Assembly: GCA_964016885.1 (NCBI GenBank)
Contig: OZ024742.1
Span: forward strand, 314,154,001-314,218,000
Length of the DNA: 64,000 bases
Source of the DNA: Eledone cirrhosa
Taxonomy: Eukaryota
Reading direction: 5' to 3'
Position numbers and translations under genes: made by a program. The notes under the pieces were generated by a model. It worked only from the letters and a program-made list of their open reading frames with translations. It did no database searches and was not told where the DNA came from. Positions within the stretch are counted from its first letter, which is position 1. Each line of letters begins with the position of its first letter. Below are positions 14,343 to 46,299 of this stretch, one piece after another.

Positions 14343-14385
14343 ACGATGTACTAGTTTCAAGCTTGTTAGCTATCATCAGCACCGT
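14343..14385 (-). ncRNA. type I hammerhead (family A)
   Basis: acggtg CTGATGA t agct-aaca-agct t GAAA ctag TA catcgt. Stem I is 6 bp, and the base of stem II is a T.T mismatch. Confidence 0.75.
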
Positions 14386-14459
14386 ATACATATCTGCCAG
14401 ATAGTTGAACGTTCGAAAGTATATACTTTCCTTATGAAAATTAACGGCTGAGCAGCCTA

Positions 14460-14467
14460 ATTTGCAT
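14460..14467 (-). promoter_or_regulatory. octamer motif ATGCAAAT within a block conserved with family C
   Basis: Exact octamer about 88 nt upstream of the HHR core. Function is inferred only. Confidence 0.45.
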
Positions 14468-14741
14468 ATTGAGTGAGTTAAATCGGTCAGGCATACCGAA
14501 AACAATAGGTTGAAATAAAATGAAAACGAAATTTCATTTCTCACTCTTAGTATGGCACTTACTTAAATGTAAGTATGTATGTATACGTACATACATATAT
14601 GTATACAGCCGTACAGTAGCATGCATATATATATATATATATATATATATATATATATATATATATATATATATAAAAGACGTAAAATAAGAAAATTAAA
14701 AAAAAAAATTTTTTTTTAAATTTTAACTTACTTAAATTTTC

Positions 14742-14823
14742 ACTCCAACTAATTAGTTTCTGCAATGGGATAAAGACAGTTACGTAATCCAACTGTCGAG
14801 AATTCATTGCGTCATCAGGGAGT
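14742..14823 (-). ncRNA. type I hammerhead (family B, copy 1)
   Basis: actcc CTGATGA c gcaatg...gacagtt...aactgtc...cattgc a GAAA ctaattag TT ggagt. Confidence 0.8.
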
Positions 14824-15291
14824 CTATTCTCAGCTAAGTCTTCAGGCAATGCGCGGACACCGGGGACTCATAAAAATAATAATAATTCGGTAGATGGAAC
14901 AGCTAGCGGGGGCTGAATTCCATGCACTGAAATCCTCGCTGCCTCTGGTCAAATGGTCGATTCTAAAGAATCAATCACGTGACACAGAGGCTAGTCAGTA
15001 GGAATGGGATGGTAAGATGACAGACGCCTACTAACACCCCCCAAAAAAAATTTAGAAGTGGTTTTGGCAGGTTTGCTCGACAAATCAGTGATTTGGAGAT
15101 AAATATAGATAATTTAATATATCTACTAACATAAGCGCACATATGTACGCAAATGCCAGCAAATACACAGGTTATGTCATAGTATCTAGGTGGTTCAATG
15201 CAGGAGGATGCAGAACAATAATATAAAAGACGTAAAATAAGAAAATTTTTAAAAACATTTTAAAAAAAAATGTTAACTTACTTAAATTTTC

Positions 15292-15373
15292 ACTCCAACT
15301 AATTAGTTTCTACAATGGGATAAAGACAGTTACGTAATCCAACTGTCGAGAATTCATTGTGTCATCAGGGAGT
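15292..15373 (-). ncRNA. type I hammerhead (family B, copy 2)
   Basis: As copy 1, with a stem II G-C pair replaced by A-T (15312/15360). Confidence 0.8.
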
Positions 15374-43300: not shown

Positions 43301-44438
43301 TCTGCTATCACCAAGATAATGCTTCACTATCTAGGCGTTGATTTGCCAAAATGTTGGTGGTTTTATCCGTCGTAAATATTCATCCCCTATTTCGTCAATA
43401 ACACGTAATATTTCATTATTTGTTTTTTTATTAAACATGGTCGTTTTAATACGTTCAGCAAGAGAGATATTTATACATGAATTAATTTCTCTCTGGAAGA
43501 TTTCGTTCAGGAAAATTTTCAATAGTTTATACTTTTGATTATTATCATTATCGATAGTATTTTCCATAACAGTCGAGGTAGACTCGGATGGTACAGGTGG
43601 TGTCAAATTTCTTCGATTATTATTATTATTTCTTCGATTATTATTATTATCGATATTATCGATATTATCGATATTATCGAAAGGCGGTGGATTGGCAGTA
43701 TCGGTAGAAGGTCGGACGCCATGCTTTGCGGCATAGAGTTACGGCCCTTGCCATTCTGAATTCAAATCCCGCCGAGGTTAACTTTGCCTTTCATCCTTAC
43801 GGGGTCGATAAAAATAAAGTACCAGTAATGCACTGGGTATTTGCTGGCCTTGTGCCACAAGTAGAAACAATTATTATTATCGATAGTGTTTTCCCCAGCA
43901 TTCGATGTAGACTTAGATGGTACAGGTGGTGTCAAGTTTCTTACAGGCATAGTTGTTTCAAGGCGCTGTTCAACCTGGCTGCTAGGAAGTCTAGTAGCAT
44001 GGCGACCTGTAGCACGTGTTGTTGATTCCATGTTTGTTGTGGGGGACTTACAATTAATAATATTTATTTTATTTTTACGTTCAACAAATGTCGCTTGTTG
44101 GCGTAATTGTTTCGCTGTGAAATAATTTAGCTCTGGGTGCATTTCGTCCCAGTGTAACTTCATTCTGTTCATATAGCCAATGGAGGGATTGTTTTTTGCC
44201 ATTTTATAACAATTAAATAAATCATTATTAAGTTCGCAACTCCAAGAGAAATGTGATTTATAATTTCGGTCTCTTCTGTAGCTACAACTGAATAAAGTGT
44301 GTTTACCTTTCTTGTTGCTTGTCTTCGATACTTGCTTAATTTTGTTTTTGATTTTGTGTTCAGCCATGCTGTTTGTAGCAAATCCTTGTAAAATGAATTA
44401 TGTATTTAGTCGGATATCTCTACGAATTCGAATAAAAG
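40311..44438 (-). mobile_element. near-full-length R4/Dong-like non-LTR retrotransposon, frameshifted
   Basis: N-terminal WSCELN..CY..GYMNRM..W..P motif (43762..44367). RT motifs NYRPI, LDYRKA, RGIFQGDSLS, FVDDLK (41870..42637). Zn knuckle CRLC..H..SSC, RHD and RPD..E restriction-like endonuclease (40584..41723). The 3' UTR ends at (CATA)n. Confidence 0.9.
43681..43875 (+). mobile_element. SINE inserted into the R4-like ORF
   Basis: Complete consensus copy flanked by TSD-like tattatcga on both sides. Confidence 0.9.
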
Positions 44439-45966
44439 GTGTATATGCAGTTATTAGATGCAAAGTTTTTGGAATGTCTTACATATTTTTACTGTTCCAT
44501 TAATTGATTGTACTTGTAATATTCCTAACTAGTTGTGTTCTTTCTGTTCCTGTGAAACCTAGCTTCTCAAGATTTGTATTGAGGCAGTTACTAACATATC
44601 CCAGTGCCCCAATAACCACAGGCATAAATCTGAAGGTGTAATCAGGGTCGAGTATCTGCATATTTCTCATCAGTTCTGCATAAATGTTCTCCTTTTCGCT
44701 AATCTTTGTTATTATATTGGCATCTGCTGGGCAGCTAATTTCCACTACTGTGCATGCTTTCTTCTCCTTGTCCCATATCATAATATCTGGTCTGTTATGC
44801 CTGCATTTTATTGGGGTTTTTACTGGAACATTCCACCAGTACTCTTTCATATTATGTACATGGATGTCTTCCACATTGCTGTAGCTTTTAATGTGTTTAT
44901 TATCGGGGCTATCTTTTTTAGGAATTGCAGTGCTTTGGCCACTACATCATGCCTCATAGGTAGATAGTACCGCGATGACATCTTTGGGCAGCTGCTCATA
45001 ACATGGGTGATATCCTCGATGTTAGTTCTGCAGAGTCTGCACTTGTTATCACATCTAGGTGTTTTGCCTGCATCCCTATCTCTTTTGTGAATCAGGTATT
45101 TCGTGCTAATCTCCTGTTCATGGATTGCAAAAGCGTATCCTTCAAAGTGGGAGCCAATATAGCGGTTGTTGGTCCAAGATAGACTACTTTCCTTATCTAT
45201 ATTACTCTCACTCTGGAGCTTCCTGGCAACATATCTATGCATGATTTTTTGCTGATAGGCATGCAGTTTTTCATCCATGGATTCACTGCGATACTGCTGA
45301 GCGACATCCTTGGGTGTAAGTTTTTGATTATCACACAGGGAATATCTCTCGAGGAGTTCCCAACTCTCATGATCTTATCTGTTTTATGCAGATAGACCTG
45401 CTCGAGAAACGGGCTCCTACGCTTCGAGGTTCGTAGATGTTGTCGGAGGGATATGATGCGACATTCAAATGTTGTCTGGACTGATGTTAGGCCTCTGCCT
45501 CCCTGCTTACGTTTCAAGTAAAGGCGGTCTATGTCACTGTTGATGTGGAAGTTTCCGGTGTTGTTCAGTATTTTTCGAGTTCCAACATCAACTGCTCGGA
45601 TTTCGTCTATCGTCCAATTGAGTATTCCAAACGTTGGTGTTAGGACAGGCACAGCAACACATTGTGAGCCACTGTTTTGTTTTGCGCAGAGAGTTCCGAT
45701 GACAGATCTTTCTTAATCGGGTGTAGTATTCCTTGGTTACGCGTTCTTTATTAAATATACCATTATAGGATATGTTCTCATCTATCCCCAGGTATCTGTA
45801 GCAGTCCTCATCAGATACCGGTGAAACAGTTAGGCCATTGATGACAATGTTGCTAGATTGGGTTGTTGTTTTTCCCCGCTTTACAGTCATGTATGAGCAT
45901 TTATCTTGGCCAAACTCCATTCCTATATCCTTTGAGAACGTTGTAACCAGTTCAAGATTTTTCTTC
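44439..45966 (-). mobile_element. second, 5'-truncated R4/Dong-like copy
   Basis: Highly similar to 40513-42006. ORFs 44500..46007 carry the RT C-terminus, Zn knuckle and endonuclease. Confidence 0.9.
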
Positions 45967-46161
45967 GGTACATCTACATATGTATACGTGTGTGTATTCA
46001 TATGCATACTAGTATTTCAGTATACATATGTGGATGTACATTTTTAACTTAATTGTTTAAGCGTCAGTCATACAAAAGTGAGTTACAAACGAAACGAAAT
46101 TTAATTTCGTTTCGTTATTTGTTTTTATCGTCTCCGTTGAACCGGTACGTACTCACGCTCT

Positions 46162-46169
46162 ATGCAAAT
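46162..46169 (+). promoter_or_regulatory. octamer motif ATGCAAAT (also at 46628-46635)
   Basis: Exact octamer 100 nt upstream of the HHR core, in a block shared with family A. Confidence 0.45.
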
Positions 46170-46254
46170 TAGTCTGCCCACTACTAATTTTCATAGAAAA
46201 AGCATATAACGATATGTGCTTTTATAATTCTCTAGAGAGGCCGTAAGATAGGTA

Positions 46255-46299
46255 AATATTGCTGATGAGATGTAACAACATCGAAACTAGTTCAATATT
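46255..46299 (+). ncRNA. type I hammerhead (family C, copy 1)
   Basis: aatattg CTGATGA gatgt-aaca-acatc GAAA ctag TT caatatt. The core is canonical and stems I and II are perfect. Predicted cut after 46292. Confidence 0.9.

Follow-up and report, generated by a model that had tools for sequence, protein, structure and literature searches.

Two families of short hammerhead ribozyme (HHR) repeats, A and C, lie in a 64,000-nt stretch of the Eledone cirrhosa genome (GenBank assembly GCA_964016885.1, contig OZ024742.1, positions 314,154,001 to 314,218,000, forward strand; hereafter the window), and each monomer of either family carries an octamer-plus-TATA block that is likely to be its own, hybrid promoter of the small nuclear RNA (snRNA) type, probably read by RNA polymerase II (Pol II). 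Because each family bears a host-type octamer and TATA box before its ribozyme, the repeats are likely to be transcribed by themselves rather than through read-through from neighbouring genes. The host genome comprises 3.0 Gb, and the window is AT-rich with many microsatellites.

The block starts with the 12-mer TATGCAAATTAG, found at 14457-14468 on the minus strand in A and at 46161-46172 and 46627-46638 on the plus strand in C. The original prediction placed an octamer block ahead of the hammerhead in both families, and this arrangement was confirmed: the 12-mer is exact in each, 39 of the 49 alignment columns of the block are identical (blastn E ~1e-6), and the local alignment score of 46 compares with a maximum of 32 in 2000 shuffles. 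A TATA box lies 42 nt past the octamer start in A (14419-14425, minus), and a TATA-like box lies 41 nt past it in C (46203-46209, plus). Much of the remainder of the units had been described as diverged, which is correct insofar as only the block and the HHR reach blastn significance between A and C; however, the two units are collinear along their full length at 59% global identity (30-80% per 30-column window), and they are therefore relatives. Of the two unit lengths proposed, 466 bp holds for C. The A locus (14150-14660, minus, bounded by (TA)n) holds only ~1.07 units, with 477 bp between repeats, and the period of A tandem arrays elsewhere ranges from 456 to 550 bp because of internal (TA)n.

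Both ribozymes are type I hammerheads, at 14343-14385 (minus) in A and at 46255-46299 (plus; second copy 46721-46765) in C. Cleavage is predicted after GUA, between 14349 and 14348, in A and after GUU, between 46292 and 46293, in C. The hammerheads with exchanged stems are present as predicted, but two details needed correction: CTAG is not a stem but a palindromic loop III on a single A-U pair, and the pairing said to be retained in stem II is interrupted in A by a U-U mismatch at the core end. Among 16 copies drawn from six families, double-sided changes occur at 11 of the 12 pairs, and the covariation score was reached by 0 of 500 shuffles, in a control that ignores relatedness. Minimum free energy folding of the isolated HHRs formed stems I and II with the core mispaired. 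Matches to Rfam microRNAs were discarded as microsatellite artefacts.

The block was then compared with host promoters, as the original prediction had suggested, using fetched loci of U6 (12 of 48 matches), U6atac (4 of 15), RNase MRP (1 of 1), U1 (10 of 42), U2 (12 of 48) and U5 (8 of 43). At the three distinct U6 sites the 12-mer or its octamer stands at -76, -77 and -78, with TATA at -30; the RNase MRP gene (1/1) has TATGCAAATGAG with the octamer at -77, and the best-scoring U6atac has the octamer at -77 with one mismatch. The pattern TATGCAAAT(T/G)AG plus TATA fits the proximal promoter of these host RNA polymerase III (Pol III) genes. In U1, U2 and U5, positions -55 to -58 carry TCAG or CCAG, usually followed by a TATA-like box at about -30. 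Neither the 8 distinct upstream regions of U1/U2, over 100 nt, nor the 8 U5 loci, over 400 nt, showed a proximal octamer. What U1, U2 and U6 have in common is a distal motif resembling TTAYYTCCCTT at about -255. The block of A and C, the 12-mer of which we take to be an extended POU2F consensus, therefore corresponds to the U6-type proximal element, which the U1, U2 and U5 genes examined lack. The octamer had been assigned to the snRNA-type promoters, and this assignment stands; as a match to the Pol III proximal element, however, the block abuts the position of the proximal sequence element (PSE) and is not a distal enhancer, a role rejected since host genes carry the octamer proximally and another motif at about -255.

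Some host copies were dropped from these counts. In 5 of 10 fetched copies from the C19 U6 array (L139, L140 and alike), an inserted repeat of ~190 bp separates the TATA box from the U6 gene. Three of the four fetched U6atac copies look retroposed and lack promoters; two of them (L187, L188) lie at or just past (TA)n runs and were possibly retroposed by the same machinery as the repeats studied here. The window itself holds a degraded U6 copy (63138-63245, minus, 55.5 bits) without promoter elements. With the proximal octamer marking only Pol III genes and a TATA-like box near -30 in most Pol II-type U1, U2 and U5 genes, the host layout is unlike the human one. Our literature search, which did not cover subscription journals or bioRxiv supplements, returned no report of cephalopod U6 promoters or of this block in the class of repeats to which A and C belong.

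The block is not confined to A and C. A promoter-only query (octamer, CC and TATA at U6 spacing, with the ribozyme absent from the pattern) gave 115 matches genome-wide and 0 in the reversed control, and the fetched matches besides U6 genes and C variants were repeat families D, E, F and G. Among 21 distinct non-C places (30 loci fetched), CTGANGA occurred 80-120 nt downstream in 9, and with GAAA in 7, where random positions give 1.4% and 0.5%, respectively; to the eye, most of the remaining places resemble degraded members of those families. A second query, for a variant octamer plus HHR core, gave 982 matches (control 0), and YATATA, which was not part of the query, stood at offset 42-43 from the octamer in 17 of 30 fetched copies. 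The block thus recurs in at least four more HHR repeat families, at least six in all. The view of each monomer as a promoter-plus-ribozyme unit, in which the promoter is a predicted one, gains sequence support from this recurrence and from the match to the host Pol III proximal element and TATA box. Family D (L158, L165, L168) is an older HHR family with exact U6 spacing, and a T-run follows shortly past the ribozyme in L158 and L168, as would be expected of a Pol III unit. Octamer-free HHR families (L034:2175 and 2492, L066:2233, L109:2839) carry TTAYYTCCCTT or a close variant directly past the ribozyme; in a ~317-bp octamer-free unit, the position of this distal motif ~270 nt before the next ribozyme suggests a second way of borrowing snRNA promoter parts.

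Conservation across copies agrees with this, although weakly. In C (122 copies), 3.0% of all letters depart from the majority, compared with 0.5% of those in the 12-mer and 0.1% of those in TATA; in A (56 copies), the corresponding figures are 2.7%, 1.3% and 0.3%. The block is therefore above the unit average, as predicted, but other windows equal the octamer, as detailed below.

The block is also an inverted repeat, 10/11 complementary, a feature absent from the original prediction; in C the arm complementary to the octamer arm, which would form an RNA hairpin with it, lies at 46185-46195 (plus). It folds as a 13-14 bp hairpin in A and C monomers, and against 60 shuffles the monomers fold about 10 standard deviations better (A, -154.7 vs -98.3 +/- 5.3; C, -156.9 vs -93.2 +/- 6.1 kcal/mol). 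These data raise the alternative that the block persists for its role in the circular RNA, as a hairpin or a stem bound by protein, its likeness to U6 being a relic of capture or a coincidence, and that transcription comes from flanking read-through. A 2020 review agrees with this in so far as retrozymes, the class discussed below, seem promoterless there and are assumed to be transcribed by read-through (PMC7761336). If pairing alone mattered, both strands would be free to change, as those of the HHR stems are, so the near-invariant octamer strand, with a partner strand that varies among families (6-10 of 11 complementary), counts against a hairpin-only function. Such a function would also leave unexplained the TATA box at a fixed distance and the match to host genes that have no hairpin. 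We regard this alternative as quite improbable; a dual constraint on the block, as DNA promoter and as RNA fold, is the simplest account.

Which polymerase would use such a promoter was examined from the spacing and the PSE register. The octamer-to-TATA distance is 41 nt in C, 42 in A, 42-44 in E, F and H, and 47 in D. A PSE-TATA matrix of host U1/U2 genes, applied with the octamer excluded, gave its best score among 123 offsets to the octamer-abutting position in 8 of 13 representative copies, one of them A; a held-out U5 matrix did so in 5 of the 13 and placed that position among its four best in 9 of them. For A, E and H, and for two of the three F copies, the top rank went to a register with a TCAG-type PSE 25-27 nt before a TATA-like box, at low absolute scores. 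Insect snRNA promoters likewise pair a PSE with TATA or PSEB at conserved spacing (PMC1761439). The putative PSE region of A lies at 14434-14454 (minus), with TCAG at 14451-14448 in the U1/U2/U5 register, and overlaps the inverted hairpin arm at 14433-14443. The putative PSE regions of A, E, F and H resemble those of U1/U2/U5, unlike host type 3 Pol III promoters (U6, U6atac, RNase MRP), with which the repeats share the 12-mer upstream of TATA. A and the related families best fit the Pol II PSE-TATA register, as far as the matrices indicate, and the register of C is ambiguous.

Alternatively, Pol III might transcribe the repeats from the same promoter, used in the manner of a U6-type (type 3) promoter, with occasional read-through of T-runs giving multimers. 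Three observations would fit Pol III: an octamer adjoining the PSE position is present at all 5 intact host Pol III sites but at no U1/U2/U5 gene examined, family D stands at the exact U6 spacing of 47, and one array end lies just past a T-run in both A and C. On the other hand, A, C, E, F and H fall 4-5 nt short of the host spacing, and the Pol III matrix, itself weak, ranks A only 44 of 119. T-runs, which terminate Pol III (PMC3499247), occur as two T5 in C and as T4-T8 in the A copy examined, and they would halt this polymerase before the promoter of the next unit. Because of the U1/U2/U5 register and these T-runs, Pol II is modestly favoured over Pol III, given a working promoter, and transcription by Pol III is considered unlikely.

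Several results weigh against a self-carried Pol II-type promoter in A and C. Host Pol III genes have the octamer 46-48 nt from TATA, so A and C, 4-5 nt shorter, show the octamer and TATA box of a type 3 promoter without its spacing (41-44 in the repeats other than D), and the distal TTAYYTCCCTT element was not found in A or C. C fits the Pol II matrix poorly (rank 31 of 123, or 10-13 of 119 with gaps), as does D with its U6 spacing; the absolute score of A is -4.4, compared with 5-26 for held-out host genes, and the PSE register was chosen after family E had been seen. One regular expression for a motif like the 3' box of host Pol II snRNAs gave no match in A or C. No other host snRNA gene with the hybrid layout appeared in 140 kb around the U1/U2/U6 clusters, a scan that matched only U1, U2, U6 and one tRNA and left U4, U7, U11, U12, 7SK, RNase P and tRNA-Sec unsearched. 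As for conservation, 12% (C) and 25% (A) of 12-nt windows equal the octamer, and the copies are not independent. The families may descend from one common ancestor, in which case their agreement does not reflect independent origins. The block hairpin is present also in F and H, and the ribozymes score below the 52-bit cut-off of Rfam HH9 (C, 38 and 36.5; A, 20). Finally, no autonomous partner element was found among the fetched loci, and no genome-wide search was made.

The genome contains 19,213 exact A/C-type ribozyme cores and 6,205 exact blocks, the latter in a pattern that fits mainly C (99 of 100 among the matches listed); both reversed controls gave 0. Copies range from dimers to arrays of tens of kilobases, in tandem and often with an inverted arm, and the units are short, head-to-tail, free of open reading frames (ORFs) and below 45% GC (35%). 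In C, 29 of 30 distinct array ends fall in two clusters ~70 nt apart, 16 at 32-34 nt and 13 at 102-110 nt before the octamer. For A, 17 of 65 array ends lie at 37-41 nt, 18 at 92-106 nt and 6 elsewhere, the other 24 being likely alignment breaks at internal (TA)n. Both preferred ends flank a GAAAT..TTTC hairpin, and many continue into (TA)n. This hairpin, predicted to be common to both families, was found at 14522-14540 (minus) in A and as a perfect hairpin at 46091-46113 (plus) in C, where it is repeated at 46557 and 47023. On this sequence evidence, A and C are non-long terminal repeat (non-LTR) retrozymes, a known class, with Penelope-type ends. A Penelope-like element was shown in vitro to start reverse transcription at two sites in a stem-loop and to use AT-rich targets (PMC11167929), and Penelope elements have inverted arms, tails and microsatellite targets (PMC8557442). 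Two candidates were rejected here: A-like matches beside L006 and L009 were merely TA-rich sequence (L006 was read), and a 495-nt unit-length contig (X5) was not used as a circle, as tandem DNA fits it equally. This contig comes from one of four runs of unknown kind whose contigs were aligned with the C array and bear on neither start sites nor expression.

These ends suggest a further alternative, in which the units come from an autonomous Penelope-like element as its detached pseudo-LTRs (pLTRs), and the block is the ordinary pLTR promoter of that element, not a captured piece of a host snRNA gene. A 2026 preprint derives vertebrate retrozymes from Penelope pLTRs (bioRxiv 10.64898/2026.07.22.740005), and this origin is compatible with a self-carried promoter in all but the source of the block. 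However, neither of the window's two Penelope pLTR remnants, each with a minimal HHR, has the octamer, and none of five endonuclease remnants was followed by a same-strand octamer, in a sample where two had <250 nt of flank and no genome-wide Penelope search was made. We therefore consider a pLTR source of the block possible but doubtful. One remnant belongs to a 5'-truncated Penelope-like element at 50750-52175 (plus), which has a reverse transcriptase (RT) piece with YRDDG, an endonuclease-type ORF recognised by eye without a Pfam match, and a pLTR with the minimal HHR at 52045 and the host snRNA distal motif at 51926, and ends in (TA)n; a related pLTR piece with an HHR lies at ~10737 (minus). 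A Penelope fragment adjoining an A array (L105) was rejected as a pLTR, since the join runs through (TA)n.

Several other features of the window adjoin the A and C loci. A second A locus (16908-17441) is rearranged with inversions; it retains an intact HHR at ~16932-16974 (minus) and lost its octamer at a junction. Between the two A loci lies a third tandem repeat (14676-16907, minus) of four 550-553 bp units, 96-97% alike, with a (TA)n end; it has CTGATGA, CGACAG in place of GAAA, and neither octamer nor Rfam match, and its complementary CATTGC/GCAATG and GAGAAT/ATTCTC blocks hint at a structured, perhaps pseudoknotted RNA. An HHR-like motif at 17770-17825 (minus) has a long stem II and a TATATAT loop III, and similar motifs occur in L038, L047 and L187. 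The C array (45965-47060, plus; 2.4 x 466 bp, followed by (TA)n at its 3' end) starts at a break in one of two decayed copies of a long interspersed nuclear element (LINE; 40584-46016, minus, RVT_1 match), and this LINE continues differently at 45966 in contigs of other sequencing runs.

With a self-carried promoter as the preferred explanation, we infer the following cycle from the sequences. With a POU factor and SNAPc/TBP bound to the block, transcription would begin ~20 nt upstream of the ribozyme in C, where the U1/U2 register, if it applies, puts +1 near 46235, and ~10 nt upstream of it in A, near 14394. Pol II is the most likely polymerase; it would continue into the following monomers, and successive hammerheads, likely aided by pairing via the palindromic loop III, would release unit-length RNA that would then be circularised. 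Because unit-length RNA includes the promoter of the next unit, even an upstream-type promoter would survive retrotransposition. A Penelope-like RT/endonuclease would copy the RNA from either site flanking the GAAAT..TTTC hairpin into (TA)n, yielding tandem and inverted arrays.

HHR repeats with promoters of their own have precedents. The promoter of the schistosome HHR satellite is internal and tRNA-type, not an upstream octamer and TATA box, although A and C resemble that satellite as HHR repeats with a promoter, which in A and C is predicted. It is a Pol III promoter, whereas newt satellite 2 (Coats, Zhang, Epstein 1994) is an HHR repeat with an internal snRNA-type promoter reported to be read by Pol II (PMC2220036). 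Newt satellite 2, the only snRNA-promoter precedent for HHR repeats in the literature searched, resembles A and C as an HHR repeat with a promoter of the snRNA type, which in A and C is predicted from sequence. It differs in that A and C belong to a distant animal lineage, have an octamer abutting the PSE position as in host Pol III genes along with a TATA box, and are among at least six families that carry the block in Eledone cirrhosa. Like the metazoan non-LTR retrozymes described by Cervera and de la Pena 2020 (PMC7229834), A and C are non-coding tandems in which each unit has a single type I HHR and folds strongly, and they are likewise low in GC (35%) and present in thousands of copies; their helix III, a single pair with a palindromic tetraloop, matches amphibian HHRs, and their unit of 466-550 bp exceeds the 150-450 bp given there. 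They differ from the seemingly promoterless retrozymes of the review (PMC7761336) by the host-matched snRNA-type block. With Penelope-like elements and pLTRs they share partial tandems, inverted 5' arms, two alternative ends, AT-rich or (TA)n targets and an HHR (PMC11167929, PMC8557442, 10.64898/2026.07.22.740005), but they have no ORF, and their ends are 60-75 nt rather than 30-40 nt apart. The class and the snRNA-type promoter of newt satellite 2 were thus already known, and the addition made here would be the host-matched block in A and C.

In summary, a candidate promoter that matches the host, with predicted start sites, makes the abundant transcription of animal retrozymes directly testable, and the families offer a natural spacing series of 41-47 nt for the choice of polymerase. 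As a by-product, the promoter layout of host U6 and U1/U2/U5 genes may be useful for tools that express guide RNA or circular RNA. More tentatively, and as a real possibility that falls short of an even chance, this radiation of at least six retrozyme families may owe its success to a chimeric promoter that combines the Pol III-specific octamer with a PSE-TATA at Pol II spacing: a shift of 4-5 nt would switch the polymerase and allow read-through, the promoter would travel in the ribozyme-cut circle, and family D would keep the ancestral U6 spacing.

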